Under the pieces are notes generated by a model. That model had not been told where the DNA came from. It ran no database searches and saw nothing but the letters and a program-made list of their open reading frames with translations. This document shows positions 1,233 through 21,331 of a stretch of DNA of 64,000 nt, piece by piece (within the stretch, counting starts at the first letter, position 1; each line of letters begins with the position of its first letter). Source of the stretch: an uncultured Candidatus Saccharibacteria bacterium. GTDB lineage: Bacteria > Patescibacteriota > Minisyncoccia > Phycocordibacterales > PALSA-1337. The translations under genes were made by a program, and so were the position numbers. The stretch is from assembly GCA_964495685.1 (NCBI GenBank), contig CAZBVQ010000001.1, positions 105,521 to 169,520 of the forward strand, in the 5' to 3' direction.

Positions 1233-3065
1233 CTAGAATTCTCCGAGAATCTTTAGCAGTTTCTCCTCGTGTTCATTTATAGCCTTGGCGTCAGGTTTGA
1301 TCGAATGAATGTCTATGATTGGATTGTCTTTGAAGTAAAGTACCTCGTTGCTCTGGAAGATGCCGCTCCAGCCCTTCTTTTTACGGTCATCAGTGTTCGT
1401 CGCTACTCTGATTGCCTCATTATATTGATCTATATCGAGTTTTATCATCTCCTTTCTCTCGGATACGTGACCAGTCAAATCTGTTTCATACGTTCTGAAC
1501 AGTTTTTTGAGCAGTCCTTCGAAAGCTAAAAGTTTAGAATAGCCATCGATGAGCATCTCACGTCTTTCGAGAAATATCTTTTCCATCGTCGGGTCGATAA
1601 ATTTGAGAAATGTTTTTCCGTCCTCCTTAAACTCCTTTAAAAGCATCTTTCCTTCAAAGACGCCGGAAAGGATAGTAAGCGACATATTGTATATGCTGAA
1701 GAAATTCGGCTTGCCCTGATTATTCAGATTGCCGATGATAAGCTCGCGATCCAAGTGTTCACCTTTATGTTCCGGATCATCATCGGCATAAACGATGCCG
1801 AGATTGGCGTCGTAACGGTCAGTCCTTTCCTTGAAGTCCTTCACAAATTCGTAGTTGCCGTTGAAGTTGTACAGGCTTTCGCCGGTGATGACGATCCCGT
1901 CGAATTTTTCAAAAGCCTTCTTTTCATCGAGTTCTCCTTTTTCAGTTATATCGAGGCCGACCCTCTCCATTACTTCTTTAGCAGCCGCGAATTCGCTGTC
2001 ATAGAGGCGCTTGCTGTATAGCTTCTCTTTCATCGTCTCCGCCTCTGTATGGTTTCGTATCTGAAGTTCTTCCGCTTCGATGTGTTTGCGGAGTATCGAA
2101 TTTGCCTCTGTTTTGATAGCAATCCATCTATTGAATAACTCAGCATCACTGCTTACTGCAAGTGGTGTGTATGCTTCCTCAAGTCCGTCATCAAGCCATT
2201 TGAGGCATCCTTCCTTGAGCATGACCTGTATAGTTGTATTGTGTTCAACGGCATACTTCTCCATAGCCTTTGTAACATCGTCACAGGTGCCGGTATCCTC
2301 ATCGTCGGCTTCCTGATTTTTGGCCATAGCTTTTTCAGTAACTTCGATACCTTTCATCTTCAGAAAATATCGAGCTACTTCGACAAGAGGAATACAAGCA
2401 AAATAGTGGAAAAGCTGATATTCCTTGGCAAATTTGTTATAGCTTTGTTCCGCAACGAGAGATGCTAGCTTTCCCTTTGCCTCTGGAGAAAATTCAGATT
2501 TTCCGTTATACAGATTGGCAATGATTTCTTCTTGATCAAGATACTGATGATCTGTCTCCACGTCGGGGTAGAGTTCGTTCATACGCTTTCTGTCGTCCGG
2601 ATTCAGTTTTTCAAAGGCTAATTGATAAATGGCATAGTCGAAATCGAGCCCTTCCTTCAGCTTTACTTCTTTCTGCTTAGCTGCGATCCTTACGGCTTCG
2701 TCGAGCTCGACCATCTTCATTTTCTCCAAGGTATCAATGCATCTGCCCATCCTGCGATATGAGGGGTAGTAGAGTAGATTTAGAATGACAGGAAGTTGTG
2801 CCAAATATGCAACTTTGGCATCTTTGTATATTAGTTCGACCTCGATCTCCATTCTTCCCGTGTGCTTCCAGGCTTCATTTAGCCGATTCCACTCTCGAGC
2901 TTCGCTGTTATCCTTGGCTTTCCAGTTTTCCAACGCATCCTTATCAGCGGGAGTCAAAATATCCTTGCCGGTTTTCATCTTTTGCACGTCGTTTTGAATG
3001 AGGAGAATGAATTTCTCCCGTGCCGTTAGGTTTCCAGTATGTAGCATTCGCGTTAAATCTCTCAT
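1233..3065 (-). CDS. hypothetical protein, 610 aa, no recognisable motifs (no P-loop, no HTH seen); last gene of the minus-strand methyltransferase operon
   Basis: Long uninterrupted ORF with protein-like composition, tightly packed against flanking genes. Confidence 0.5.
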   Translation of the reverse strand: MRDLTRMLHTGNLTAREKFILLIQNDVQKMKTGKDILTPADKDALENWKAKDNSEAREWNRLNEAWKHTGRMEIEVELIYKDAKVAYLAQLPVILNLLYYPSYRRMGRCIDTLEKMKMVELDEAVRIAAKQKEVKLKEGLDFDYAIYQLAFEKLNPDDRKRMNELYPDVETDHQYLDQEEIIANLYNGKSEFSPEAKGKLASLVAEQSYNKFAKEYQLFHYFACIPLVEVARYFLKMKGIEVTEKAMAKNQEADDEDTGTCDDVTKAMEKYAVEHNTTIQVMLKEGCLKWLDDGLEEAYTPLAVSSDAELFNRWIAIKTEANSILRKHIEAEELQIRNHTEAETMKEKLYSKRLYDSEFAAAKEVMERVGLDITEKGELDEKKAFEKFDGIVITGESLYNFNGNYEFVKDFKERTDRYDANLGIVYADDDPEHKGEHLDRELIIGNLNNQGKPNFFSIYNMSLTILSGVFEGKMLLKEFKEDGKTFLKFIDPTMEKIFLERREMLIDGYSKLLAFEGLLKKLFRTYETDLTGHVSERKEMIKLDIDQYNEAIRVATNTDDRKKKGWSGIFQSNEVLYFKDNPIIDIHSIKPDAKAINEHEEKLLKILGEF

Positions 3066-3066
3066 G

Positions 3067-3309
3067 TTATCTTCTTTTCTTTAGGGTTTGTTCAAGGAAT
3101 TCGACCCGTTCCTTGAGATCAGCCACTTCGATCACTTTTGAAAGTGCCAAAGCAACACGCGAGACAGTCATGGCCCTCCTTAGCGTAGTTTTGCCCTGTG
3201 ACACGTCCTTAAGGGTGGTCGAGAGAATCTCGCCGGCTTCCTCGATGCTCAATATCTTCTTGTTTTCTTGGATATTCATATGTTTGTTACATTCCTTCGA
3301 CGATCTCAA
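3067..3309 (-). CDS. hypothetical small protein (80 aa), predicted helical/coiled
   Basis: ORF is packed 1 nt from the 610-aa gene and overlaps the upstream gene by 23 nt (operon-like). Confidence 0.35.
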   Translation of the reverse strand: MRSSKECNKHMNIQENKKILSIEEAGEILSTTLKDVSQGKTTLRRAMTVSRVALALSKVIEVADLKERVEFLEQTLKKRR

Positions 3310-3676
3310 CCCATGCTTTTACTTCAGCTGCCTTGCCGGACTTTGTTGCCTCTCTGTAGAGGGCGGAAATGACGTTCGGAGTGAGCTTTTTGGCCCAATA
3401 GCTGATGCTTTTCATGAGACCACCGTCCTCATCGATCTTTTTGTTCCATGCTGATAGCGTGCCGGGGTCCTTGATACCGAATCTCTTAGCAAATTCTGTT
3501 TGGTTTTTGATGTCGAGAAGCGATATGGCAATCTCATCATCAATGCCAAATTTCTCGATAACGTGCTTTGGCTGCCCACGGAGTATCGAGGGCATGGATC
3601 GCCAAAGAACGTATGACTCGAATTCCTGTTTCTTGTATACATTCAGTGATTTGGAATGTTCGGCATCGATTTCCAT
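3287..3676 (-). CDS. small HTH-like protein (129 aa), possibly phage terminase-small-subunit-like
   Basis: Segment EFAKRFGIKDPGTLSAWNKK resembles an HTH recognition helix; located directly downstream of the methyltransferases. Confidence 0.35.
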   Translation of the reverse strand: MEIDAEHSKSLNVYKKQEFESYVLWRSMPSILRGQPKHVIEKFGIDDEIAISLLDIKNQTEFAKRFGIKDPGTLSAWNKKIDEDGGLMKSISYWAKKLTPNVISALYREATKSGKAAEVKAWVEIVEGM

Positions 3677-3682
3677 ATGCGT

Positions 3683-4450
3683 TTAATCATGGTTAATCAG
3701 TTCGGCTTTTTTCTTGGTCAATTTCTCCCATCTCTCGACTATGGTCTTTGCATACGCCTCATCCAGCTCAACCATGAGACACTTTCGACCTAAGTGTTCG
3801 CAGGCAATCAAAGTTGATCCTGAACCGCCGAATGGATCGAGTACGATATCCCCGGGCTTTGTCGAGTGGTATATGAGGCGACGCAGAAGGGCTGGCGGTT
3901 TCATCGTCGGATGCAGCTTGCTTCTTGATGGTTTGGGGTAGAAAAGAGCCGTTTTGTCTTTGTTGCCGAAATATTGGTGTTTGCCGTACCAGCCGTACAC
4001 AATGAGCTCGTGTTGAGGATGGTAGTCCTTGCGGCCGACCACGAGGTGATTCTTTATCCATATGAGGAGTGCTGACTTCGTATAGCCGGTATCGTGTAGG
4101 GCATTCAGAAGTTCACGGAGTTTAGTGTCTCCGTTGAAGATGTAGAAAGCATTTTTCTCGGCCATATGGGAGTTGACTGCCTCGAGCCACTTATTTGAGA
4201 GATCGTAATAGTCGACATTTACTGCGTCTCCTTTGATCGCCTTAAATTCCACTCCATTTCCGCCTTTATGGATCGTGTCGAGGAATTCCTGCTTGCCCTC
4301 GACGTAACCAACGCCGTAGGGCGGGTCGGTCAAGACGAGATCGATCTTGTCGCCGCCAATGAGAAGATCCACGTCCTCTTTTTTCGTCGCATCTCCCAGA
4401 AGAAGACGATGTTCCCCGAGCTTCCAGATTTTAGTTGAGCTTTTTGGCAT
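3683..4450 (-). CDS. DNA methyltransferase (N6-adenine/N4-cytosine, beta-class, N6_N4_Mtase family)
   Basis: DPPY motif (LVLTDPPYGVGY) precedes the AdoMet motif I (LDPFGGSGST). The ORF track extends to 4507; the start used here is the internal Met (MPKSS..) to limit overlap with the upstream gene. Confidence 0.8.
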   Translation of the reverse strand: MPKSSTKIWKLGEHRLLLGDATKKEDVDLLIGGDKIDLVLTDPPYGVGYVEGKQEFLDTIHKGGNGVEFKAIKGDAVNVDYYDLSNKWLEAVNSHMAEKNAFYIFNGDTKLRELLNALHDTGYTKSALLIWIKNHLVVGRKDYHPQHELIVYGWYGKHQYFGNKDKTALFYPKPSRSKLHPTMKPPALLRRLIYHSTKPGDIVLDPFGGSGSTLIACEHLGRKCLMVELDEAYAKTIVERWEKLTKKKAELINHD

Positions 4451-5690
4451 GGTTTTGAGTGAAGTGCTCGTAACGCCGAATAATGAGATCGCAGAATGTG
4501 GGGTCAAGTTCGACCAAGTATGCCCGGCGTTTCAGTTGCTCTGCGGCGATCAGGGTACTTCCGCTTCCGCCGAAAAGATCGAGCACGATTTCTCCCGGTG
4601 CGCTACAGCGTTTCATCGGTTTTTCGTTCAATGTTATCGGTTTCTGTGTTGGGTGCTCGTAATCTGCGGTATTGTCGCGCTTCACTAGCCAGAGCTGGAC
4701 GATTGACATAAGGTCGTCATACGCGCCGATCGAGTTAACTTCTTTGTTTAGGATTTCTGATAGATTTTTTACCGACGGATTCAAGATAGGACTGCCGCGT
4801 GTGCCGTACACGCATGGTTCTATGACCTTGTTGAAGGCGACTTGCGGTGTTGGATCAAAGTTATTCTTGACCCAGAAGCAGATACGCCTGTTTACAATGC
4901 CGTTTTTCTCATACAGATTTTGGAGAAGCCAGACGTATTTCTCATCGCACCAGTAGAAGATGTGGATATCTGGCTTACATCCTGAAAGCGCATTCTTGAG
5001 CGATGTCTCGATGGATTTCTCGTATTCACCAGTGCTTTTGCTGTCATTTACAATCTTGTCAGTATATTTGCCGTTCGTACCTATGCCTTTGCGATAATCG
5101 AGGCCGATATTGTACGGGGGATCGCAGTAAATCATGCTCGCTTTGTCCGTACCCATCAGTTTCTGAATTGTCTCTGGATTTAGCGAGTCGCCGCATATGA
5201 GCTTATGGTCTCCAAGCTCATATATGTCACCGGGCTTGGTTTCTGGTACACTGATTTTTTCAAGCTCCTCCTTTACGTTGAATCCGTCATCCTGAATGTC
5301 GAGAACGTCGTCAAAGAACCCATTCAGTTCATCCGGTGTGAATCCAACGTCCATGAGCATGTTCGAATCGAAAAGCTTCAAAAGTTCTTCGTCCCAGCTT
5401 CCAAGGTTCTTGTTGAGACGAAGATTAAGCTCCTTTTCGCGCTCAATCTCCGGAATATTGAGATATACAACCGGCACTTCTGTGAATCCGAGTGTTGTGG
5501 CGACTTTGAGGCGAAGATGACCACCAATCACCACATTTTTTCGCTCTGGAGAACCATTTACGATGAGGGGATCGCAGAGGCCGAAGCGTTTGATGCTCTC
5601 GCTCATGTCGTAAAGCACTTTGTCGTCCCATTTCCTAGGATTATAGGCCGAGGGCTTCAGTTCTTTGATTTGTACGTGGTCGATTTTCAT
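4431..5690 (-). CDS. ParB-like nuclease domain fused to DNA methyltransferase (ParB-MTase)
   Basis: N-terminus: ELKPSAYNPRKWDD...GGHLRL (ParB/Srx fold). C-terminus: CDPPYN and LDLFGGSGST (DPPY and motif I). This is a common phage/plasmid methylase architecture. Confidence 0.8.
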   Translation of the reverse strand: MKIDHVQIKELKPSAYNPRKWDDKVLYDMSESIKRFGLCDPLIVNGSPERKNVVIGGHLRLKVATTLGFTEVPVVYLNIPEIEREKELNLRLNKNLGSWDEELLKLFDSNMLMDVGFTPDELNGFFDDVLDIQDDGFNVKEELEKISVPETKPGDIYELGDHKLICGDSLNPETIQKLMGTDKASMIYCDPPYNIGLDYRKGIGTNGKYTDKIVNDSKSTGEYEKSIETSLKNALSGCKPDIHIFYWCDEKYVWLLQNLYEKNGIVNRRICFWVKNNFDPTPQVAFNKVIEPCVYGTRGSPILNPSVKNLSEILNKEVNSIGAYDDLMSIVQLWLVKRDNTADYEHPTQKPITLNEKPMKRCSAPGEIVLDLFGGSGSTLIAAEQLKRRAYLVELDPTFCDLIIRRYEHFTQNHAKKLN

Positions 5691-5757
5691 AATAGTTGTT
5701 TATTGATTACTAATAAGTGAAGTATAGTAACTATTTAAGGCAAAAAAATTTATACTG

Positions 5758-6297
5758 TTAAAAACGCGCAGGCATCCTCCTCTTGAAAGTAAGGTGCAGG
5801 CGCTTGAGCTGGATCTCGGCAACAGGCTTGCTCACCTTGAAGATTCTAGCGACATCCTCGATATACGGCGACGGTGTTACCTTATACAGCTCGCGAACCA
5901 TTATTTCGGGCATGAGTATGTCGCCTGCAAATTCATCGCAAAGATCTTCGTCCCAACCGTGCACATTTTTCGAGCAGAACACCGTTTTTGGCTGATTGGG
6001 GAAGAGAACTATATGCGCCAGCTCATGCGCGGCGGAGAAACGCTGCCTCTCGGTGCATTCTTGGCCATTAACCACGACAATCCATCCGATATTCATGTCT
6101 TTGGTGGAGAAAGCCGACACGCCTTGCGGGAAAAGCTCGCTATTCGACTTTACGACGCAGTGTACATCGCCGAGATATGACTCGATGACATCCCTGATTG
6201 GAATGGGAGTCTTGAAATAGCCGGAGTCCTGTGCCTCCTTCAGAATCTCATTTACCTTGTTTTTGGCTTTGACTCGCCACTCGTCTGGGATCCGCAT
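5758..6297 (-). CDS. ImmA/IrrE family metallo-endopeptidase
   Basis: HEXXH signature AAHELAHIVLF; the gene lies directly downstream of an XRE repressor gene. Confidence 0.75.
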   Translation of the reverse strand: MRIPDEWRVKAKNKVNEILKEAQDSGYFKTPIPIRDVIESYLGDVHCVVKSNSELFPQGVSAFSTKDMNIGWIVVVNGQECTERQRFSAAHELAHIVLFPNQPKTVFCSKNVHGWDEDLCDEFAGDILMPEIMVRELYKVTPSPYIEDVARIFKVSKPVAEIQLKRLHLTFKRRMPARF

Positions 6298-6302
6298 ATT
6301 GG

Positions 6303-6653
6303 TTACTTAGTTTTTAAATGTTGTTTGATGTGTTCGATATATGCCTCGACCGCTTGTATCTGATTGTCGTTCAGATCATACTTGGCCCGAAGGAAGGTGG
6401 GTGTACTTGCTTTGGCGATATAATCCTCTTGTGTGATGCCTGCCTTTGTGAGGATTAACTCAACCGGCTCCTTCAATCCGTCCGCAATCTGTCGAAGTGT
6501 CTTGACTGAAGGGGAATCATCCAAGTACTCACCGCTTTCAAGCCTCGAAATATATCCTCTTGTGAGCTTCGATTCCTTGGCAAGTTTCTCCTGGGTCAAA
6601 CCCTTATCTTCACGCAATGACTTTATGACCGTGTGCAATTTCATGTTCTTCAA
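6303..6653 (-). CDS. XRE-family helix-turn-helix transcriptional regulator (ImmR-like repressor)
   Basis: LTQEKLAKESKLTRGYISRLESGE is a classic Cro/C1 HTH; pairs with the ImmA gene. Confidence 0.85.
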   Translation of the reverse strand: MKNMKLHTVIKSLREDKGLTQEKLAKESKLTRGYISRLESGEYLDDSPSVKTLRQIADGLKEPVELILTKAGITQEDYIAKASTPTFLRAKYDLNDNQIQAVEAYIEHIKQHLKTK

Positions 6654-7112
6654 TTCAACTTATGCTTCTAATGCTTCGACTGGCTTAATGATACCATGCA
6701 TGACTACAAGGTTACAATAGTATACAGTGTGGATATTGAATTAGGACACGGAAATAGCCACCTGTAAATACTTGGCTACGAAAAGCCAATCAAGTCAAGA
6801 ACGAATCGATAGAGATATGTATTTATGGCGATGTATAGCCATTCTTTGAACTTCATGAGTTTGAGATGGGTCTAAACTATTGGGTTTGTTTGGCTTTTGA
6901 CCCAAGTGAGACATGATGCGGATCCATCAAGGACTGTCTCAATTGTCTCATTTTGAGGAAACTAGCCCCTATGCGGATGCCTCACTACACTATTGGTGTG
7001 ATTGCCAGAAAACCCTTATACTGTCTTATACTACACAGTCCGAGACGTTAGTGGGGCACAACCAATACGCATGTTAATGTTAGATAGTTGTGATAATATC
7101 TTGAGATCAAAC

Positions 7113-7382
7113 ATGAAAAAATACTCTGAAAAAATGATAGTAATTATTTTTGGTTTCTTACTGTTCATTCCGGGTGTTTTAAGTATTTTTCCTCCGATAA
7201 GTTATCTGGTCTCACATTACGAATATGTCCTTCGTCTTCCAGCTCACGGTTTTCCTCTTTTATATAGGGGAGCTTTCCTTTTCATTGATTCATTATATTA
7301 TGCGCCAGTAGTTTTAAAGTTAGCCGTTTTGTTTGCCGGATTATTTTTAATATTATACGGATTCATCCATTACAAGAGATAA
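7113..7382 (+). CDS. small hydrophobic membrane protein (about 89 aa from the internal Met)
   Basis: Two or three predicted TM stretches (IVIIFGFLLFIPGVL, LAVLFAGLFLILYGFI). Confidence 0.35.
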   Translation: MKKYSEKMIVIIFGFLLFIPGVLSIFPPISYLVSHYEYVLRLPAHGFPLLYRGAFLFIDSLYYAPVVLKLAVLFAGLFLILYGFIHYKR

Positions 7383-7404
7383 ATAGTGAATATCCTCATA
7401 TATT

Positions 7405-8022
7405 ATGTCCATCAAATTCAACGAAGTTACCTGGTACTCAAAGCTCGGCGCAATCATCTTGTTTATTCTGGTCGTTCCAGTTTTGACGTTTTGTATTGGT
7501 CGGAAATATCAGGAAGTCATCGACATTCAGGTTGTAAGTGTGACAAATACTTCATCACCAAAACATATGGCCGCATCACCTGATCACCAGGGCGCAGTGA
7601 GTCCTCTGAGTAGTACGTATCACATCGATGATCAGGATGTAACACTCTCCAACGGTTCATTCGAGCAATCTGTAGAGGGAAGTTCTGGCACATTCGAGAC
7701 AAAACTATTTGGCGAGCCAGTGTATGGCGACCTCAATGGCGATGGTGTCAACGATGCTATTTCATTTTTGTATCAGGAGACTCCAGGTACTGGTATCTTT
7801 TTCTACGCTGTAGCCACAATCAATGTGAACGGCTCGTATGTCGGCACCAATGCCATTTTCTTGGGAGACCGTATTGCTCCGCAAAATATTACTATCTCCA
7901 AAGGTGTAGCCGCTGCAAACTATGCGACTCGCAAAGATTCAGATCCCATGACTACCGATCCATCAGTTGGAGTGACCAAATACGTGAAGATCGAAGGGTT
8001 GAAATTGGTGGAGGGGAGGTAG
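7405..8022 (+). CDS. membrane-anchored hypothetical protein (N-terminal TM)
   Basis: N-terminal TM segment AIILFILVVPVLTF; DLNGDGVNDA-type motif. Confidence 0.45.
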   Translation: MSIKFNEVTWYSKLGAIILFILVVPVLTFCIGRKYQEVIDIQVVSVTNTSSPKHMAASPDHQGAVSPLSSTYHIDDQDVTLSNGSFEQSVEGSSGTFETKLFGEPVYGDLNGDGVNDAISFLYQETPGTGIFFYAVATINVNGSYVGTNAIFLGDRIAPQNITISKGVAAANYATRKDSDPMTTDPSVGVTKYVKIEGLKLVEGR

Positions 8023-8098
8023 GTTATATTTTCTCTAGTATTTTACGCATGGTAGCATTGTGATCGATCTACAAAAGTCATTTTTTTGGTATTTAAGA

Positions 8099-8860
8099 TT
8101 ACTTTATCCCAGTCCACATGTTTTCAAATAGATTTAGGTAAGCTTTGGTAAGCGCTTTATTTTTTATGCATATAGCAGTGACTGGTGAATACTCAGTTGA
8201 GTAAATTATGTTCAGTACGGTGTCTATCTCTGGGTAGATGTGTAGGCCAGCAGGGTTGGGGTTATTAGACTCAACGTATTTTATTTCATACATATTTATG
8301 TTAGATACGTCATGGTCGATTGATTCCTTCTGGGAAGAGTAGCCGAGCATCTTGATGTGTACATTTTTCTTACGAACAACCTTATGATACTTGTCCCAAA
8401 TTGGTCGCATGGTTTGTTTCATGAAATCTTCTCCACCTGTACCCAAAACATATTTTGTACTTCGTGCGGGCATCGAGTTGATAAGTGTTGAGAGCAGTCT
8501 GAGGTACTCATCGTTGCCTTCGTGCACAGAAATCTCCCGCAATTCCCGATTGGTTGTGATTTGTTGATAATAACGAAGTAAATTTTCAGCGCTTTCTTGT
8601 TTTTCCTTGAGCTCAGTAATCAAAATGTTCGGGGTAATAGATTCAAAGATCATTTTACCCTTCATATTTTTGGCAGATATAAGTTTTTTGTCCACGAGGT
8701 GGTCAAGGGCGGTATATACAATGTTTCGGTGGAGGTTTGTTTTTGCGATTATGTTTCCAGCGGCGGAGGCGCCCTGTTGTAGCAAAACTTGGTAGACGAG
8801 GGCCTCGTTTTCTGAAAAACCCAATTTTCTTAAATCGAATAAATCGTTGTTTATAGGCAT
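8099..8860 (-). CDS. TrmB-family transcriptional regulator (copy 1)
   Basis: N-terminal winged HTH LGFSENEALVYQVLLQ...NIVYTALDHLVDKKLI plus a C-terminal TrmB-like domain; divergent to a binding-protein gene. Confidence 0.7.
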   Translation of the reverse strand: MPINNDLFDLRKLGFSENEALVYQVLLQQGASAAGNIIAKTNLHRNIVYTALDHLVDKKLISAKNMKGKMIFESITPNILITELKEKQESAENLLRYYQQITTNRELREISVHEGNDEYLRLLSTLINSMPARSTKYVLGTGGEDFMKQTMRPIWDKYHKVVRKKNVHIKMLGYSSQKESIDHDVSNINMYEIKYVESNNPNPAGLHIYPEIDTVLNIIYSTEYSPVTAICIKNKALTKAYLNLFENMWTGIK

Positions 8861-8896
8861 ATTTTATGTATTTTAGATAGTTATCACCTAAAATAG

Positions 8897-8924
8897 TTGA
8901 CAACATATATAATTATGCTATACT
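8897..8924 (+). promoter_or_regulatory. sigma70-like promoter for binding-protein gene 1 (TTGACA-16 nt-TATACT)
   Basis: Hexamers read directly: TTGACA at 8897-8902 and TATACT at 8919-8924. Confidence 0.5.
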
Positions 8925-8965
8925 GTAACTGCTAAGTCAAATATCAGCTGTTAATAACATATATT

Positions 8966-10099
8966 ATGAAAAAAATTATTATCCCGATAGTTATTCTTCT
9001 TCTTGTTGTGGTCATTGTCGGCTATTACTCATTAGTTTCTAATAAAACAGATACGCAGGAACCGATTGTTATTGGATACATCGGACCTCTTTCTGGTCCC
9101 TCTGCAGTTTTGGGGATGGACGCTGTTAAAGCAGTCCAGATTGCCGTTGACGAAGCAAACGTCAAAGGAGGTGTTAATGGCAGGGAACTCAAGATGGTTT
9201 TCCAAGACGATCAGTACCTAACAAAAAATACGGTTACTGCCTATCGAAAGATGGTTGACACCGACGGTGCCAAGATTGTTTTAGTTGCCAACTTTGGCGG
9301 GGTTCTCGCCTTGAAGGATGCGGCAGTGAAAGACGGTGTTATTATAATTGATCCACTCGACTGTAATGCCCGAGTTGCTGATTCTAGTAAAAATCTGTTT
9401 TGCATCGCTACCGAAACAGAGTCGATTGGTACGTCTCTTGCACACAAATTGGTTTCTCAAGGAAAATTGAAGGCAGGAATCATGTATTCAACTAAAGACG
9501 AGTTTATGTCATTGGTTAGTGATGCTTTCCGCAACACGTTTGCGAAAGCTGGTGGCGTAGCCATTGTTGAGTCATTCAATTATGAGGATAAAGACTTCAA
9601 GACTCAACTCACAAAGATTAAATCAGAAAATCCTGATGCATTGGTTCTCCTAGGACACGATGAAACAGGTATAATTATGAAACAGGCACGCGATCTTGGA
9701 CTCAAAGCACCCTTCATGACAACAGGTACAATCACAAGCCCTGGGGCACAAGAAGCTGCGCGTGGATATGCCGAAGGTACACTATTTGCATTTTGGGATG
9801 CTAGTTCGGACAACCTAGGAGCACAATCACTGACTAGTACATTTACCAAATTAGTTGGTCGCCCGCCAATATTTCCTCTTACGACTCATCCTGCATACGA
9901 CGCGGTAACCGTTCTTACGACTCAGGTTTTGCCTGGAATCAATGGAGATATTACTGCCGAAAAGATAAGGGCGGGACTTCTGTCGGTCAAAGGATACAAG
10001 GGTGTAACGGGAACGATTACTATCGACAGCAATGGGGCGGCTCCAATACAAGAGAGTGTGTATAAGCTCGTGAACGGTGCTCCAGTTAAGGCGGAGTAG
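8966..10099 (+). CDS. periplasmic substrate-binding protein, LivJ/LivK-like (Peripla_BP_6), orphan copy 1
   Basis: Signal/TM N-terminus followed by IVIGYIGPLSGP...GVNGRELKMVFQDDQY, typical of branched-chain amino acid binding proteins. Confidence 0.8.
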   Translation: MKKIIIPIVILLLVVVIVGYYSLVSNKTDTQEPIVIGYIGPLSGPSAVLGMDAVKAVQIAVDEANVKGGVNGRELKMVFQDDQYLTKNTVTAYRKMVDTDGAKIVLVANFGGVLALKDAAVKDGVIIIDPLDCNARVADSSKNLFCIATETESIGTSLAHKLVSQGKLKAGIMYSTKDEFMSLVSDAFRNTFAKAGGVAIVESFNYEDKDFKTQLTKIKSENPDALVLLGHDETGIIMKQARDLGLKAPFMTTGTITSPGAQEAARGYAEGTLFAFWDASSDNLGAQSLTSTFTKLVGRPPIFPLTTHPAYDAVTVLTTQVLPGINGDITAEKIRAGLLSVKGYKGVTGTITIDSNGAAPIQESVYKLVNGAPVKAE

Positions 10100-10115
10100 A
10101 ATAAAATTTCTTGCA

Positions 10116-10153
10116 CACAAAAACCACTCCATAACCGGAGTGGTTTTTGTGTG
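10116..10153. terminator. bidirectional intrinsic terminator between convergent genes
   Basis: Hairpin cacaaaaaccactcc-ataacc-ggagtggtttttgtgtg, with U-tracts on both strands. Confidence 0.7.
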
Positions 10154-10155
10154 TA

Positions 10156-10896
10156 TTAACTTGCTGTCACCCCCCACAACATCTCAAACACCGACCTGAA
10201 GACATCCACCATAGCTGGAATCGCAACAACAACAGCCAACGCCTTTATTTCTGGTCCGATGATCACAATTTTGTCGGCATAAATATCGATGGTGCTTTTG
10301 AATACGTATTTTTCGGGCAAGTATTTGAAGGTGCGCAATAGCTTGGGATCATTTTGCCCTTCTTCGCTACGTGAATCGTTGGAAAGTAATAATTTTACGC
10401 GCGTATTGTGTGCAGCGCGCTTTTTGCGGAATGAAATAAGGAAATCTCGATCAATATTCAAGAATCCGGAGACACTGCCGATGATGTAGTACTCTTTGTT
10501 GCGATATTCTTCGAGAATGTCCATGTAGAAGGCCTCGAACTCGCGCTTTGACTTGATCAGTCGTACGCCATACTCTCTGGCTTCAGCGCCCTGCATGCGT
10601 TCGAGGAGAGGGATGATCGAGGCGAGGGAAGCAAGCTTGCGTTCCTGGAGAATTGGCAACTTATTTGGCTGGAGGGGAGTATAAAATCTTTTACTGCCTT
10701 GGTCACTTTCGGTGATCATGCAGTGATGAATCAGGCGTTCAATAACCGGGTACACAGTGGTACGTTTTATGCCCAATTCTTTGGCCAGAATGGTGGCAGG
10801 AGCGCCTCCGAGTTGGAGTAGCTTCAGATACACCTGAATATCTAGTTCAGCGAGGCCAAAATCACCCAAAACCTTACTAATTGCTTCATTATTCAT
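10156..10896 (-). CDS. TrmB-family transcriptional regulator (copy 2)
   Basis: HTH ELDIQVYLKLLQLGGAPATILAKELGIKRTTVYPVIERL; paralogous to copies 1 and 3. Confidence 0.7.
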   Translation of the reverse strand: MNNEAISKVLGDFGLAELDIQVYLKLLQLGGAPATILAKELGIKRTTVYPVIERLIHHCMITESDQGSKRFYTPLQPNKLPILQERKLASLASIIPLLERMQGAEAREYGVRLIKSKREFEAFYMDILEEYRNKEYYIIGSVSGFLNIDRDFLISFRKKRAAHNTRVKLLLSNDSRSEEGQNDPKLLRTFKYLPEKYVFKSTIDIYADKIVIIGPEIKALAVVVAIPAMVDVFRSVFEMLWGVTAS

Positions 10897-10984
10897 TGTT
10901 GTTAAAAAATTACGACAGTATAGTAAATTAAGTATAATATATTCACAAATAAAGTCAAAGTAGACTACAATTTGTTAAAATATA

Positions 10985-11013
10985 TTGACAAATAGGGTAG
11001 TCTCGTGTATACT
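10985..11013 (+). promoter_or_regulatory. sigma70-like promoter (TTGACA-17 nt-TATACT), ending 7 nt before ATG 11021, which would give a leaderless mRNA
   Basis: TTGACA at 10985-10990 and TATACT at 11008-11013; no Shine-Dalgarno sequence between the -10 and the ATG. Confidence 0.5.
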
Positions 11014-11020
11014 TAGGCCC

Positions 11021-12139
11021 ATGAAAACAAAAATTATTTCAGTAGCAGTGATTTTAGCCATTATTATAGTGATAGCTATTATTTCTGCTCACAATAGCGG
11101 TCAAACAGTCAAAATTGGCGCATTGTACCCACGCACAGGCGGATTGGCTTCATATGGTGAGCCTGCCTACAACATGGCCAAGATTGCCGTCGAGGATGTG
11201 AATGCTTCGGGTGGTATTCATGGTCAGAAATTGGAATTGATCGCCGAAGACCATGTATGTGACCCGAAAATAGCTTTGTCGGCATACGCCAAACTTCGTG
11301 ATACGCAGGGCGTCGCTATATTCACCGCAGTTGCATGCAGCGGAACTATTTCTGCTATTGCCCCCAATCTGGAAAAAGATTCGACGGTACTTCTCGGCAC
11401 AGTCACGAGTGCAAATAAACTTTCAGGGATCTCGCCATCATTTTTCCGTAACTGGGCCTCTGACGCACAGGAGTCTCGATTGATTGCCGATCGTATTGTT
11501 GCGAACAAGTACAAGACGGTGGCTGCATTGTATGAAGAGACAGATTACGCCAAAGGATTGGTCGTGTCGCTCGAGGGATTCTTGGCTAGTTCCAGCGTTA
11601 CTGTTTCAAAAGAATCATTTGTCTCTGGTGCAGGCGATGTACGCACACAACTCAAGAAATTGCAGAGCATGAATGCTGATGCGGTATTCATTAGTGTGCA
11701 GACGGTAACCAGCGGGGAAGTCGTTTTGAAACAAATGGAACAGCTCGGATTTCACCCTAAGGTTTTGTTCGTGAATGACAACATCATCAAGGCCACATCT
11801 CTTGTCACTGCGCATAGTGAATTACTCGAAGGTGCGATCGGGGGAGATTACGTGTTCGAAGTCTCTGATGAGGCGCGCGGTGTCCTCGCTCATTACAAGA
11901 ATGTCTACGGTGTCGATTGCCCGCAGGTAAATATTTGTCTGGCTGAATATGATGCGATACGAATGCTCGCAGAAGCCATCAAGGAAAAAGGTGTAGTAGC
12001 ACAAGATGTCAGGGGATATTTGGCGGATAGTTCATACCAGGGACTCACGGGAACTATTTCTTTTGATGGCAAGAATGATAGGGAGGGTGCAGGGTATTCG
12101 TTGTTTGGGATTGACAAAGGTGCTGTGAATAAATTGTAA
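11021..12139 (+). CDS. periplasmic substrate-binding protein, LivJ/LivK-like, orphan copy 2
   Basis: MKTKIISVAVILAII TM then VKIGALYPRTGGLASYGEP...GIHGQKLELIAEDH; paralogous to copies 1 and 3. Start placed at the internal ATG just after the promoter. Confidence 0.8.
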   Translation: MKTKIISVAVILAIIIVIAIISAHNSGQTVKIGALYPRTGGLASYGEPAYNMAKIAVEDVNASGGIHGQKLELIAEDHVCDPKIALSAYAKLRDTQGVAIFTAVACSGTISAIAPNLEKDSTVLLGTVTSANKLSGISPSFFRNWASDAQESRLIADRIVANKYKTVAALYEETDYAKGLVVSLEGFLASSSVTVSKESFVSGAGDVRTQLKKLQSMNADAVFISVQTVTSGEVVLKQMEQLGFHPKVLFVNDNIIKATSLVTAHSELLEGAIGGDYVFEVSDEARGVLAHYKNVYGVDCPQVNICLAEYDAIRMLAEAIKEKGVVAQDVRGYLADSSYQGLTGTISFDGKNDREGAGYSLFGIDKGAVNKL

Positions 12140-12151
12140 AGATGCACCCAA

Positions 12152-12901
12152 TCAATTTTCCTCACTCGCATTCCACATAATCCCGTACATCTCCTGGTGC
12201 ATACGAATGACACTCTTATTTTCGATCACGATGCCAATAATCGGCTGTGTGAGCTGGTGAATCAATACTCGTTGTGGCGTAATGACTAGATTGGTAGTGA
12301 GTGTAGTCGCGGTAGGTAACATACGCGCCTCAGCATTGAAATTCTTTGCTAGAGATAACCATTTGTGACCCATGCCAGTGTCTTGCACAAGCATTTTTAT
12401 GGTGATTGGAAGTTTGGCACGGCGAAAGGAGAAGTCGGTGAAATACTCTTCATCGGCATTTACCCAGTGATCAACATTGCCCATGATGAGATATTCTTGG
12501 TGTGGTCGTATGTCGCGCAGGAAACTTTCGTATACACTTTTGACTGACTCGATACCCTCGTAATATCTGATGAAACTTTCTCCGCCTCTGAGATTGTAGA
12601 GTGCTGAAAATTCAGGTAGTAATTCCTTGAACCGAGCACGTCTCGCCTCGAGAATACTCTCGAGTTTGTCGGGATGTTCGGCGCTGAACTTTTTCTTGAA
12701 TCCCGCAACCTCAATATTCATGAGCCCTTTTTGCTTGAGTGATTCGACGACGGAATAGACTGTCGTACGCTTGAGACCTGCCGCTTGCGATAGCCGTAGG
12801 ATGGTAGTCGGACCCAAAGAAAGGGCGGCAAAGTAAACGCCGGACTCATTTTCAGTGAGGCCGAGACCTTGCAATGTTTCTGTAAGTTGATTGTTTTTCA
12901 T
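12152..12901 (-). CDS. TrmB-family transcriptional regulator (copy 3)
   Basis: HTH LTENESGVYFAALSLGPTTILRLSQAAGLKRTTVYSVVESL. Confidence 0.7.
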   Translation of the reverse strand: MKNNQLTETLQGLGLTENESGVYFAALSLGPTTILRLSQAAGLKRTTVYSVVESLKQKGLMNIEVAGFKKKFSAEHPDKLESILEARRARFKELLPEFSALYNLRGGESFIRYYEGIESVKSVYESFLRDIRPHQEYLIMGNVDHWVNADEEYFTDFSFRRAKLPITIKMLVQDTGMGHKWLSLAKNFNAEARMLPTATTLTTNLVITPQRVLIHQLTQPIIGIVIENKSVIRMHQEMYGIMWNASEEN

Positions 12902-13049
12902 AAAATGTCGAAAAAAGCGACAACATTATGATTATACATCATATTGGTCATATAAGTAAAAACATAATTATGTCGACAAATATGACATAAATTGACATAG
13001 AGAACATAATTATTCTGTAATCATTATTTATACATTACCGAATAATCCC

Positions 13050-14195
13050 ATGAAATATAAGAAATTAGTGATAAGTGCGGTGGTTGTCATTGTTATCATC
13101 GTTTTACTTATCTCGCGAGGGGGAACCTCTTCTTCGCCAGAATCAGTTAAAATCGGCAATATTCTATTCATGACTGGACCCCTCGCCTCTCTTGGGGAAC
13201 AGGAGCTGAATGGTATGAAGTTGGCAGAAACTCAAATCAATAAAACAGGAGGTATCAATGGCCGAAAACTTGAGTTAGTTACGGAAGATTACGCTGGCGA
13301 TTCCAAGCAGGCAGTTTCTGCATTTGAGAAACTGAAAAACGAAGGAGTTCGATTTATACTCATTGATGGCGGCGCTGCCATAGGGCCGGTAGGACCGCTC
13401 GTTCGCTCAAATAGTGACGTCATGAGTATGGTGCCGATCGGAATTACGCATTCGTATTTTGATGACAATCCTCGTACGTGTCGGTTGGCTTTTACTGCGC
13501 GTGATTACGGTGCAACTATCGGTATGTATCTTAAAAATACATTTAACCGTCCTCGAATAGCGTTTTTGGTAAGCGCAAATGAATACGGCAAGGCCGCCAT
13601 GACCCAGGTTTCTATGGCAGTTACGGAAATGGGCGGATCCATTATTCTTGGTGAGACGTATGAACAGGGTGTTTCCGACTTTCGTACGCAGATAACAAAG
13701 CTCAAAGAGAAACAGAGTGATATTGATGCGCTTGTCGTCATCAATGCGACCAACTCGATTGAGCCCATGTTGATGCAATTGAAACAATTGGGTTTCAGCA
13801 AACCGATTGTTTCGGATATGTTCAGTATCGTTAACGCGTCGCTCAAGGATCGTTCGTTGGCAGAAGGTGTAGTCTTTATTGATTATCCTTTTGTAGCAGA
13901 TCCACACGATTCTGATTCTGTCGAGCTTGCTTCATTCAAGCGGGAATACTTCGCGGCATACGGTAAGTATCCCGTTGCGGCGGCGGTTGTCGGCTACGAT
14001 GCAGTGATGACCCTTGCAGTGGCAATGAAGCATTCGGCTGGACTAACTGCGCAGGAGGTTTCAACTTATCTGACTACCAGATTGGGTGAATACAAGGGTG
14101 TGAGTGGTACATTTAGCTTTGACTCAGACTGTGAGGTGAAGCGTGAGACAGTGATGCGTAAGGTCGTTGATGGAGAATTTGTAACCGTAAGGTAG
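13050..14195 (+). CDS. periplasmic substrate-binding protein, LivJ/LivK-like, orphan copy 3
   Basis: VKIGNILFMTGPLASLGEQ...GINGRKLELVTEDYAGD; N-terminal TM. Confidence 0.8.
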   Translation: MKYKKLVISAVVVIVIIVLLISRGGTSSSPESVKIGNILFMTGPLASLGEQELNGMKLAETQINKTGGINGRKLELVTEDYAGDSKQAVSAFEKLKNEGVRFILIDGGAAIGPVGPLVRSNSDVMSMVPIGITHSYFDDNPRTCRLAFTARDYGATIGMYLKNTFNRPRIAFLVSANEYGKAAMTQVSMAVTEMGGSIILGETYEQGVSDFRTQITKLKEKQSDIDALVVINATNSIEPMLMQLKQLGFSKPIVSDMFSIVNASLKDRSLAEGVVFIDYPFVADPHDSDSVELASFKREYFAAYGKYPVAAAVVGYDAVMTLAVAMKHSAGLTAQEVSTYLTTRLGEYKGVSGTFSFDSDCEVKRETVMRKVVDGEFVTVR

Positions 14196-14218
14196 GTTGA
14201 AGGTGGCATCACAATAGT

Positions 14219-14245
14219 AAAGCCGCTCCCCCCCAGAAGCGGCTG
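14219..14245. terminator. GC-rich hairpin between convergent genes (weak U-tract)
   Basis: aagccgct-cccccccag-aagcggct. Confidence 0.4.
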
Positions 14246-14265
14246 TGATCCTGAACTGATTCCAG

Positions 14266-14817
14266 CTATGCCGTTTTCTGGCGCAGGCGAGGGAATTCCC
14301 AGGACGGATTGCTCATGATCGCGTGGTAGAACCACGGGGCAAGTGCAACTGCAAAGAACAGATTGCCCGCAAGATGTCGTATGGTGAATGGCACTTGCCC
14401 AATCAGAGCCGCTGACCAAGACTGGTCATAGAGGAGTGGCCCAGCCATGACACCAGTGATCAGATCGAAGAATAGTGTTCCCACGATACTGGCCATGACG
14501 AAATGTGTGGCAGTGGCTTTGCGGTTGCGGAAGAAATATCCACCTCCGATACCGACTAGACCATAGGTAATGGCCGTCAGGATGGTCCACGAGCCGATCT
14601 TGCCGACAATGGCATCGAGAGCAACCATACTCAAGGCGCCATACAAACCTCCAACAACAGGCCCGTACGCTTTTGATCCGGCGTACTGGGTGGCCATGAG
14701 TGGAGAGATATTCCACATGCCCAAGACGGGCGTGATCAAGCGGAAGATGAGTGTTGCTACGAACCCGGCAGCGTATTTCGGCATGCCGGCCAATGGATGG
14801 ACGAGTGCATTTTTCAT
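14266..14817 (-). CDS. small polytopic membrane protein, possibly an ECF-transporter S component (RibU-like riboflavin transporter inferred from the upstream FMN-like leader)
   Basis: 183 aa, about 5-6 hydrophobic helices; the size and topology fit ECF S components. The riboflavin assignment rests only on the leader motif. Confidence 0.4.
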   Translation of the reverse strand: MKNALVHPLAGMPKYAAGFVATLIFRLITPVLGMWNISPLMATQYAGSKAYGPVVGGLYGALSMVALDAIVGKIGSWTILTAITYGLVGIGGGYFFRNRKATATHFVMASIVGTLFFDLITGVMAGPLLYDQSWSAALIGQVPFTIRHLAGNLFFAVALAPWFYHAIMSNPSWEFPRLRQKTA

Positions 14818-20254: not shown

Positions 20255-21331
20255 TTACTTAGTCGCTTCCAGGAACGCGAACACCTTCTCATTGGTGAGT
20301 ACTGTTTCAGCATAGACAGCTGCACGGTCGCGGTCAGCATCTTTGTAGTGTTCGGTGATGTGATTGACCTCTTCCTCGATCTCCTTCACATCCGGCTTCA
20401 ACTTTTCTTTGACAGCGATCTCATTCAAGATCAATTGCAACTTCGCTTTCTTCTCAGCGTGAGGCAACCATTCCTTGCGAATTTCTTCGAGTGATTTCTT
20501 GGCATGCTTCAGATAGTCATCGAGCTTCACACCCATGCGTTCGATGTCAGCAGCAAATTGTGCCTGTGTACGATCGAGCTCACTTTCGATCATGAGGTCA
20601 GGAATCTCGACCGTCGTGGCCTCGGCGAGTGCATCGGCGATTTTGAGACGAGTTTTTTCTTTTGCCTCATCACGCTTCTGTTCGGCGATCATGTCAGAAA
20701 GTTTGTTCTTGAAATCAGGAACGTCATTGAAGTCGCCGAGAGTCTTGACCCAGTCGTCAGTGAGCTCAGGCATACCGGCTTCGATCGCTTTGTCGTGTTC
20801 CTCAGGAGTCATCTTGTCGTGGTCATGTCCCTCATGTGACGCGGAACGTTTGCGAATCTTGAGGATGGCTTCCTCAATATCTTTTTCTTTGACTTCCAAT
20901 TCTGCGGGGTCAGCTTTTTTTGCTTCTGCTGCAGCGATCTTCTGGTAGTCGGGAAGGGTGACTGTGGGCACTACAGCAGTGACTGCGGTGAACTCCATCG
21001 GATTGCCAGGTGCAAGTTTGGTCACACGGATTTCAGGTTTGCCGATAGCGTCGATCTTTTCGTTGATGAGTATTTCGATGTAGGCCTTGGAAAGGGCGAT
21101 CTCGGCCATCTCTTCATGAATAGCTGATTCGCCAACCTTGGCCACCAGGATGTTTTCGGGGACCATGCCCTTGCGGAAGCCGTCGATGCTGATCTGCTTG
21201 TTCAGATAGGATATTGCCTCGGCACGATATGCGCCCCAGATCTCGGCAGGAATTGATCCGGTAATCTCGACACGTGATTTGTCGAGCTTCTTGGTAGTAA
21301 TGGTTCCGTACATTTTTGCTGTTTTTGTCAT
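20255..21331 (-). CDS. tig: trigger factor (short form)
   Basis: N-terminal ribosome-binding GFRKGMVP motif; 358 aa. Confidence 0.85.
   Translation of the reverse strand: MTKTAKMYGTITTKKLDKSRVEITGSIPAEIWGAYRAEAISYLNKQISIDGFRKGMVPENILVAKVGESAIHEEMAEIALSKAYIEILINEKIDAIGKPEIRVTKLAPGNPMEFTAVTAVVPTVTLPDYQKIAAAEAKKADPAELEVKEKDIEEAILKIRKRSASHEGHDHDKMTPEEHDKAIEAGMPELTDDWVKTLGDFNDVPDFKNKLSDMIAEQKRDEAKEKTRLKIADALAEATTVEIPDLMIESELDRTQAQFAADIERMGVKLDDYLKHAKKSLEEIRKEWLPHAEKKAKLQLILNEIAVKEKLKPDVKEIEEEVNHITEHYKDADRDRAAVYAETVLTNEKVFAFLEATK

Follow-up and report, generated by a model that had tools for sequence, protein, structure and literature searches.

A 64,000-nucleotide stretch of the genome of an uncultured Candidatus Saccharibacteria bacterium (contig CAZBVQ010000001.1, positions 105,521 to 169,520; referred to below as the window) contains three genes for TrmB-family regulators on the minus strand (R1, R2, and R3), each divergent from a gene on the plus strand encoding a Peripla_BP_6 substrate-binding protein (SBP; B1, B2, and B3; Table 1). 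The reading that we favor, and consider rather probable, is that B1–B3 are three separately regulated satellite SBPs of a Liv/Bra-type (HAAT-family) importer encoded elsewhere in the same genome of about 0.7 Mb, and that they are under the control of TrmBL2-like divergent regulators. The intergenic regions of the three pairs are designated IG1–IG3, and L and P numbers denote homologous contigs from assemblies or metagenomes and homologous proteins, respectively.

The nearest relative of B3 outside its immediate clade, P0129 (44% identity), is encoded in a LivHMGF-type cluster (L013/L016) comprising two BPD_transp_2 permeases, LivG-like and LivF-like ATPases, and eight tandem Peripla_BP_6 genes, and a second relative, P0149 (L015), is found in a cluster of the same multi-SBP LivHMGF design. 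The complete LivM-like permease of L016, the nearest outgroup, was used as a probe for the permease of the window's genome. It retrieved P0318, a protein of 288 amino acids with 82% identity, whose record (4 contigs, longest 700,686 bp, NCBI/Logan/ENA) does not differ from that of P0121, the exact B3 protein. The cluster containing P0318 (L017/L018) has the gene order SBP-SBP-LivH-LivM-x-SBP-SBP-SBP-LivG-x-SBP-x-LivF, that is, a complete LivHMGF set and six SBPs. Because the records of P0318 and P0121 are identical, the Liv cluster was assigned to the window's genome; the components that define HAAT-family membership, the cognate LivH/LivM and LivG/LivF, lie outside the window and are assigned through these records to the same 700,686-bp contig. 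By this indirect route, we conclude with high confidence that the genome also has one Liv-type translocator and six further SBPs, so that it encodes at least nine SBPs in about 0.7 Mb. An earlier interpretation made from the window alone (the sequence-only reading) had described the array as binding proteins without transporters, and this description has to be given up if the attribution of the cluster is correct. In the presumed Patescibacteria Liv clusters L015, L016, and L017/L018, six to eight SBP genes are interleaved with LivH, LivM, LivG, and LivF, and no TrmB-like genes were found in the Liv clusters. The LivM permease is 79–92% identical among the best 120 matches, some of which come from named Patescibacteria lineages, and the SBPs diverge to less than 30%.

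Within the window, the reported lack of importer genes was confirmed. No BPD_transp_2 permease or Liv-type ATPase was found by Pfam among the window's open reading frames (ORFs) up to 44.7 kb, and tblastn searches with Patescibacteria LivH, LivM, LivG, and LivF detected no Liv component anywhere in the 64 kb or in the arrays of L005 and L006. The sole ATP-binding cassette (ABC) gene among the genes scanned, at 38467–40095, encodes a fused ABC_membrane+ABC_tran protein and is of the exporter type, as had been stated. A check of the ORFs by coordinate and by Pfam likewise upheld the six array genes as three divergent TrmB/Peripla_BP_6 pairs. Identities among the paralogs are low (19–26% for the regulators and 24–30% for the binding proteins), and self-BLASTN of 8001–14300 revealed no DNA similarity between the cassettes. 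The same array was present in at least four independent assemblies, in one of them on a 521,699-bp contig, and orthologous arrays occur in other metagenome-assembled genomes (L005, L006, L021, and L024). Low identity, absent DNA similarity, and recurrence in independent assemblies exclude an assembly artefact, which the sequence-only reading had named as a possible refutation; the self-BLASTN result rules out a collapsed repeat and a recent duplication as well.

The origin of the pairs was examined in trees of both partners. In a neighbor-joining (NJ) tree of 31 SBPs with 100 bootstraps, a method whose deep nodes lack resolution, B3 and its L005 and L006 orthologs (100%) were sister to the in-operon SBP L016_10001 (96%), and this group was sister to L016_11148 and LIVwin_13101 (98%), the latter being an SBP of this genome's Liv cluster with 40% identity to B3. 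B2 formed a clade of its own with its L005 and L006 orthologs (100%) at a depth without resolution in the NJ tree, and the same applies to the placement of B1; B1, B2, and B3 never grouped together. In the regulator tree, likewise NJ with little resolution at its deep nodes, the R3 clade (100%) takes in orthologs from distant lineages such as Doudnabacteria and Gribaldobacteria, and R1 and R2 fall in separate clades. L005_1687 and L006_4791 are orthologous regulators (100%), but the SBPs opposite them are not orthologous to each other. Because B3 nests with 96–100% bootstrap support among in-operon SBPs, it was probably moved out of a Liv cluster to its place beside R3. Judged from these trees, the histories of regulators and SBPs are incongruent, and it was gene relocation that brought the partners together, not the copying of whole pairs. 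Triplication of a cassette was rejected because the regulator and SBP trees disagree, and also because B1–B3 do not group and B3 lies among in-operon SBPs. The phylogeny that had been proposed as a check for co-duplication thus gave incongruent trees, and the proposed diversification by tandem duplication was not supported. No B1 ortholog above 30% identity was found in the L005 or L006 loci examined. At 6546–8023 of L005, the R1 ortholog (51% identity) has no adjoining SBP gene and faces an unannotated gene encoding 196 amino acids.

B1–B3 belong to the Peripla_BP_6 type I family, with scores of 159–163 bits against a Pfam cutoff of 31.7 (E 3e-46 to 2e-47). Against the NCBIfam model of the high-affinity branched-chain amino acid (BCAA) SBP, NF011933, they reached 88–98 bits for a cutoff of 477 and are not LivJ/LivK orthologs; all NCBIfam equivalog and subfamily models scored far under their cutoffs for the regulators and the binding proteins, none of which is an ortholog of TrmB, TrmBL1, LivJ, or UrtA. 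B1–B3 and the six Liv-cluster SBPs share a common N-terminal design, in which a 17-residue window has a mean Kyte–Doolittle value of 3.3–3.6. No Cys occurs in the first 40 residues of B1–B3, and the Liv-cluster SBPs of the same design are likewise without a lipobox Cys. From hydropathy only, we infer that all nine SBPs are extracytoplasmic and held by an uncleaved N-terminal membrane helix. The cytoplasmic part of the array SBPs amounts to only 2–4 residues.

The closest solved homologs of B1 and B3 were Streptococcus pneumoniae LivJ (4gnr), Atu2422, LivK, and LivJ (E 1e-17 to 1e-21), which are amino-acid binders. The pockets were compared only by alignment to LivJ, whose sequence was confirmed over residues 1–219; the contacts considered were Y18, S79, T102, Y202, and E226. 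In this alignment, B2 retains the LivJ-type contacts Y18, S79, S102, D121, and Y150. B3 has G at 79 and I at 102 and retains Y150 and, past the confirmed stretch, an acidic residue near 226, and B1 retains almost no LivJ contacts; in both B1 and B3, the equivalents of Ser79, Thr102, Tyr202, and Glu226 are replaced. B2 would accordingly be expected to bind an alpha-amino acid, and B1 would not. The whole B3 clade has G at 79 and I or V at 102, and its in-operon sisters retain S and T at these positions, which suggests that the B3 pocket changed after relocation. B1 is an ordinary member of a large family, with one relative at 61% identity, several at 44–47%, and 243 at E ≤ 1e-30, and only about ten relatives of B3 exceed 40% identity. 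The relatives of B1 include fused double or triple Peripla_BP_6 proteins of 666–1188 amino acids with two to three matched stretches (P0365, P0368, P0375, P0418, and P0449).

The regulators contain the TrmB winged helix-turn-helix (wHTH) domain (PF01978) at residues ~10–77, with 43.6, 47.0, and 51.3 bits for R1, R2, and R3, respectively, against a cutoff of 25.6; no Pfam family matched the remaining ~170 residues. R2 and R3 are 26% identical over their full length (E 5e-23), and the similarity of R1 to both is full-length but weak (19–22%). Orthologs of R2 in L005 (74% identity) and L006 (60%) are each divergent from a B2 ortholog. No R2 relatives appeared in the metagenome scan, and R1 and R2 orthologs were seen only in L005 and L006. 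R3 had 515 homologs at E ≤ 1e-3 in a word-indexed search; among the matches listed, 119 besides a partial self-match were 53–73% identical. Its relatives were encoded at 237 loci in JGI metagenomes.

An AlphaFold2 model of R3, built with 51 orthologs, had a predicted local distance difference test (pLDDT) score of 87.8 and consisted of a winged helix (1–75), a long helix (78–104), and an alpha/beta domain (110–246). Foldseek matched the model over its full length to TrmBL2 (5box_A; E 1.9e-14, 268 columns), with TrmB next (1.7e-9), and matched the C-terminal domain alone to the PLD-fold proteins Zucchini, PLD3, and F13. According to the model, R3 has a TrmBL2-type architecture of a wHTH domain, a coiled-coil helix, and a PLD-like C-terminal domain. 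The NCBIfam equivalogs of the TrmB/TrmBL1 sugar sensors (NF040851 and NF047390) gave 15–36 bits against cutoffs of 600–650, in the N-terminal part only. Sugar sensors of this type have ~340 amino acids and a C-terminal sugar-binding subdomain; R1–R3 have 246–253 amino acids, and the R3 model ends after the PLD-like domain. TrmB-type sugar sensing was rejected because this subdomain is absent. Y49 of R3 was invariant in the 51 orthologs, and the phmmer register, in which R3 6–77 corresponds to TrmB 7–77, puts it at TrmB Y50, a DNA-contacting residue of the recognition helix (PMC4158304). R1 and R2 have a Y in the same KR(T/N)xVY context. The mean column identity across the whole R3 protein was 63%, and the conserved residues of its C-terminal domain include G116, Y124, Y137, F157, R161, N204, Q216, P220, N228, and W243.

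The six best promoter-like matches in 8000–14400 fell one per gene in the three intergenic regions, and the two TTGACA/TATACT promoters read previously, those of B1 and B2, were both recovered, in agreement with the proposed sharing of promoter regions. The R2 pattern TGTCR-N8-TAACA had three exact matches in the 64 kb against 0.34 expected, two of them within IG2; L005 and L006 share both sites, and the rest of this intergenic region is highly conserved as well. Similarly, the R3 pattern TGTCR-N7-YGACA had three exact matches against 0.42 expected, two of them within the 148-bp IG3. In both pairs, the proximal operator is located between the −10 of the regulator (10931–10936 for R2) and its start codon, and the distal operator overlaps the −35 of the SBP promoter. 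The geometry of the B2 promoter is the same in L005, and the B3 arrangement can also be read there. The first R3 orthologs examined each had two TGTCR-N7-YGACA copies upstream; with one mismatch allowed, at least one site was present in 64 of 73 R3-ortholog loci and both in 37 of 73. The sites gather sharply at two distances from the start codon, about −24 and −86, and the background is 0.012 matches per 100 nt. These conserved, positioned palindromes argue for predicted sequence-specific binding by the R3 family. The occurrence of regulator-specific operators twice in IG2 and in IG3, with conservation in orthologous loci, bears out the claim that each SBP gene has a dedicated regulator. The candidate R1 operator overlaps the B1 −35 and spans about +3 to +25 of the predicted R1 transcript. 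The third exact R3-type match, TGTCGATCAATACGACA at 62540–62556, lies inside the ORF 62353–63039 and may be due to chance. No further regulon members were recognized in the window, where operator matches with one mismatch fell largely within genes and were regarded as noise.

In the ORF list, B2 starts at TTG 10985. Because the source annotation gives a protein of 372 amino acids from ATG 11021 and the B2 orthologs (65% and 59% identity), which begin with MKTKII, have this start, ATG 11021 is most likely the true start. The B2 −10 ends 7 nt before this ATG, with the same spacing in L005 (9214–9250) and 10 nt in L006, which suggests that the B2 mRNA is leaderless or near-leaderless.

These features can be combined in the following model. 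B1–B3 would be tethered outside the membrane by their uncleaved N-terminal helix, and each would most likely hand its ligand to the shared LivHM–LivGF translocator, by analogy with the orphan SBP BraC3 of Rhizobium, which uses the Bra membrane complex (PMC2978685). Each SBP gene is divergent from a regulator of predicted TrmBL2 architecture without the sugar-binding subdomain. For TrmB-family members, binding at the promoter or downstream of it leads to repression, and for TrmBL1 and Tgr, binding upstream of the promoter leads to activation (PMC4158304). By this analogy, the proximal site just downstream of the −10 of R2 or R3 would mediate autorepression, the distal site over the −35 of the SBP promoter would mediate repression of the facing SBP gene, and some signal would relieve both. 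R1/B1 appears to work likewise with one site, which may be enough because the R1 and B1 promoters overlap. R3 is an old, widespread Patescibacteria regulator, and B3 is probably a Liv-operon SBP that moved beside it.

The partners of R3 in other lineages were surveyed. The gene upstream of the R3 ortholog was divergent in 68 of 74 loci; the family sits among housekeeping genes, and its neighbors vary. The 63 divergent partners included 10 NMT1-type ABC binding proteins, 8 class-V aminotransferases, and 3 Peripla_BP_6 proteins, most of the others having no Pfam family, and 21 of the 63 had an N-terminal hydrophobic helix. In L027 (1407–3861), an R3 ortholog is divergent from a complete NMT1-type SBP-ATPase-permease operon, beside RNase Y and ClpP as in the window. 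An unannotated partner family of 216–260 amino acids recurred in about seven loci (e.g., L030 3217–3864). Because the C-terminal domain of R3 stays highly conserved while the partner changes, R3 probably senses a common signal, not the ligand of its present partner. A wider hypothesis, which we offer only tentatively and consider less likely than not, is that the R3-clade divergent promoter with its two fixed TGTCR-N7-YGACA operators is a portable, Patescibacteria-wide regulatory socket. Different lineages would have placed different uptake, surface, and metabolic genes opposite it (SBPs of the Liv type taken out of the Liv operon, complete ABC importers of the NMT1 type, class-V aminotransferases, and small secreted proteins). 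One conserved intracellular signal, sensed via the PLD-like domain, would govern them all, and R1 and R2 would have repeated the trick to give three independently switched specificities for a single translocator.

Several observations weigh against the satellite-SBP reading. The assignment of the Liv cluster and the array to one contig rests on identical records, not on a reading of the 700,686-bp contig, and for P0318 it does not extend to the 521,699-bp contig that bears the array. No R2 or R3 operators were found at zero mismatches in the Liv loci L015–L018, and one mismatch gave scattered, background-level matches in L018; therefore, no link between the expression of the satellites and the translocator is apparent. 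The sequence-only reading had named a co-regulated permease/ATPase operon elsewhere as the finding that would overturn it, and of this the operon was found, by the indirect route given above, and the co-regulation was not. The total of promoter-like matches in the region (15) is not above that in shuffles (14.0), so that only their ranking and placement are telling, and the basis for the R1 operator is weak, consisting of two genomes only. Relative to the −35 of the regulator itself, the distal site is upstream, from where TrmB-family proteins can activate, and the loss of key LivJ alpha-amino-acid contacts in B1 and B3 leaves their ligands, and even their competence for docking, uncertain. 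TrmBL2 is a largely non-specific chromatin protein that coats coding and intergenic DNA. By analogy, the likeness of R3 to it would weigh toward non-specific DNA coating, and the C-terminal domain of R3 has no known effector site.

Four other explanations were considered. The regulators might activate the SBP promoters or act on them both ways, for example if the distal site recruits RNA polymerase and the proximal site only autorepresses. TrmBL1 and Tgr set a precedent for activation from upstream sites (PMC4158304), the distal site is about 11 nt upstream of the R3 −35, and the imperfect B3 −35 (ATGACA) and −10 (CATAAT) could need help. Against this, the B2 distal operator contains a perfect TTGACA paired with TATACT (11/12), a promoter that should need no help and that a bound dimer would block, and the same overlap of operator and −35 recurs at B3 and B1; we regard activation as unlikely, and autorepression together with repression of the facing gene by predicted binding as the better account. 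That R3-type proteins are general chromatin or architectural proteins like TrmBL2, incidentally adjacent to SBP genes, would accord with TrmBL2 as their best structural match, with the absence of the TrmB effector subdomain, and with the spread of the family among housekeeping genes with variable neighbors. Specific inverted repeats that keep to two fixed positions in 64 of 73 loci, well over the background given above, the divergence of the upstream gene in 68 of 74 loci, and the different operator spacing of the paralogs R2 and R3 (N8 and N7) make such a role very improbable.

The proposal of the sequence-only reading, in which transporter-independent SBPs serve as ligand sensors or scavengers in a module formed by tandem triplication of one regulator/SBP cassette, draws on the lack of importer genes in the 64-kb window and the L005 and L006 arrays, the provision of a regulator for each SBP, and the diverged pockets of B1 and B3. 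We consider it very improbable, since the genome is credited with a LivHMGF cluster that has six further SBPs and close relatives of the SBPs are in-operon proteins. In addition, the array SBPs have only 2–4 cytoplasmic residues and therefore cannot signal alone, the scan of the window genes up to 44.7 kb turned up neither a kinase nor a chemoreceptor as a partner, and neither the failure of B1–B3 to group nor the incongruent trees fit a triplication. The diverged pockets of B1 and B3 would also suit satellite SBPs that serve a membrane partner other than LivHMGF, such as another ABC system or the ECF S-component-like protein encoded directly downstream of B3 (14266–14817). This we judge most improbable, as Peripla_BP_6 SBPs of this clade accompany BPD_transp_2 permeases wherever an operon context exists, and the ECF-like gene is convergent with B3 and not co-transcribed with it. 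ECF transporters are not known to rely on soluble binding proteins, and the ECF S-like neighbor was ruled out as a partner by its orientation and by this known biology.

The arrangement was compared with known systems. As in BraC3/BraDEFG of Rhizobium leguminosarum, an SBP gene lies away from the permease and ATPase genes, and several SBPs serve one HAAT translocator (PMC2978685); here, in contrast, at least nine SBPs would serve one translocator in a genome of about 0.7 Mb, they would be membrane-anchored, not periplasmic, and three have a dedicated divergent TrmB-family regulator, with docking to LivHM being a prediction. The trehalose/maltose ABC operon of Thermococcus and Pyrococcus under TrmB, and the regulators TrmBL1 and Tgr, resemble the array in that wHTH proteins act, here by prediction, on inverted repeats at the promoter of an ABC-importer SBP; in the family, repression results from sites overlapping the promoter or start site, and its members are reported to autoregulate (PMC4158304). 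The regulators of the array differ in having ~250 amino acids and no C-terminal sugar-binding subdomain, in their operators (TGTCR-N7/8-YGACA or TAACA, compared with TACT-N3-AGTA or TATCAC-N5-GTGATA), and in their bacterial host with sigma-70-type promoters and SBPs of the amino-acid type, not the sugar type. TrmBL2 (5box, 5bpd, and 5bqt), an archaeal chromatin protein and global repressor, shares the architecture, the length of about 260 amino acids, and the lack of the TrmB effector subdomain, but the identity is only ~19%, and the R3 family has two conserved, placed palindromes at its own divergent promoter, whereas TrmBL2 has little specificity. Escherichia coli LivJ/LivK, S. pneumoniae LivJ (4gnr), and Agrobacterium Atu2422 (3ip5) are of the same type I family, and B2 retains most of their alpha-amino-acid contacts in the alignment. 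The array SBPs differ from them in identity (24–30% at most), in the replaced contacts of B1 and B3, and in having a predicted N-terminal anchor and no cleaved signal peptide.

Patescibacteria, also termed the Candidate Phyla Radiation, have very small genomes with few transcription factors and transporters and depend on scavenged nutrients; the names of homologs likewise put the organism of the window in this group. Its genome apparently devotes at least nine genes to the binding proteins of a single amino-acid-type translocator and has a dedicated regulator for each of three of them, which suggests that receptor choice rather than transporter number is the way in which these cells widen and tune their nutrient range. 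The analysis also provides a concrete pair of a cis-element and a regulator that recurs across many Patescibacteria lineages. In the open-access literature, no paper was found on TrmB-family regulators together with Patescibacteria or the Candidate Phyla Radiation, and nothing relevant was found on Patescibacteria and BCAA SBPs. Satellite SBPs of a multi-receptor Liv system, each under a TrmBL2-like regulator with its own palindromic operator, are apparently an undescribed arrangement; orphan SBPs and TrmB-controlled ABC importers are both established, and there is no break with known principles.

Table 1. Genes, predicted promoters, and candidate operators of the array (positions in the window)
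Feature	Position	Strand	Basis
R1, TrmB-family regulator, 253 aa	8099..8860	-	Pfam TrmB 43.6 bits, residues 10-77
Candidate R1 operator GTTATCACCTAAAATAGTTGACA (minus strand TGTCAAC...TGATAA)	8880..8902		conserved 5' of L005 R1 ortholog
B1 promoter TTGACA-16-TATACT (11/12), TG-extended	8897..8924	+	promoter match
R1 promoter TTGACT-17-CATAAT, face to face with B1 promoter, overlapping	8912..8940	-	promoter match
B1, putatively membrane-anchored Peripla_BP_6 binding protein, 377 aa	8966..10099	+	Pfam E 6.5e-47
Hairpin, likely bidirectional terminator between convergent B1 and R2	10119..10148		read from sequence
R2, TrmB-family regulator, 246 aa	10156..10896	-	Pfam TrmB 47.0 bits
R2 proximal operator TGTTAAAAAATTACGACA (R2 strand TGTCG-N8-TAACA)	10900..10917		pattern match, conserved in L005/L006
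R2 promoter TTGACT-16-TATACT	10931..10958	-	promoter match
R2 distal operator TGTTAAAATATATTGACA, overlapping B2 −35 (TTGACA, 10985-10990)	10973..10990		pattern match, conserved in L005/L006
B2 promoter TTGACA-17-TATACT (11/12)	10985..11013	+	promoter match; same geometry in L005
B2, putatively membrane-anchored Peripla_BP_6 binding protein, 372 aa	11021..12139	+	Pfam E 3e-46
R3, TrmB-family regulator of widespread Patescibacteria clade, 249 aa	12152..12901	-	Pfam TrmB 51.3 bits
R3 proximal operator TGTCGAAAAAAGCGACA	12906..12922		TGTCR-N7-YGACA match, ~-24 cluster in orthologs
R3 promoter TTTACT-18-TATAAT	12931..12960	-	promoter match
R3 distal operator TGTCGACAAATATGACA, overlapping B3 −35 (ATGACA, 12982-12987)	12971..12987		pattern match, ~-86 cluster in orthologs
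B3 promoter ATGACA-17-CATAAT	12982..13010	+	promoter match; arrangement also readable in L005
B3, putatively membrane-anchored Peripla_BP_6 binding protein, 381 aa, probably derived from Liv-cluster SBP	13050..14195	+	Pfam E 2.4e-47, NJ tree

The hairpin between B1 and R2 has a perfect 13-bp stem with an A-run and a T-run on its flanks. Directly upstream of R1, the gene at 7405–8022 (+) encodes a protein of 205 amino acids with an N-terminal hydrophobic helix and no Pfam family, and it is kept beside the array in all three assemblies covering the position (L001–L003). At the other end of the array, 14266–14817 (−) encodes a membrane protein of the ECF S-component-like/DUF6580 kind; the scanned genes of the window yielded neither an ECF A nor an ECF T component. 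No tRNA genes or Rfam matches were found in the window.

Up to 44.7 kb, the Pfam scan of the window showed genes of the housekeeping kind, which encode HU, RNase Y, ClpP, trigger factor, H+-PPase, NusA, type IV pilus proteins, TIM, PGK, RecJ, and RNase H. The trigger factor homolog at 20255–21331 (−; 358 amino acids) matched Trigger_N and Trigger_C only, with no match for the central PPIase domain. Positions 1–6653 form a mobile-looking restriction-modification/methylase island. It encodes a protein with a Type ISP C-terminal specificity domain (63–1232), a 610-amino-acid protein without a family (1233–3065), two N6/N4 DNA methylases, one of them fused to ParB_N, and an IrrE-like peptidase/HTH_3 pair. 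The strain variant L003 has other genes at the position of the island. The GC content is 41–47% over 1–14000 and ~50% downstream.

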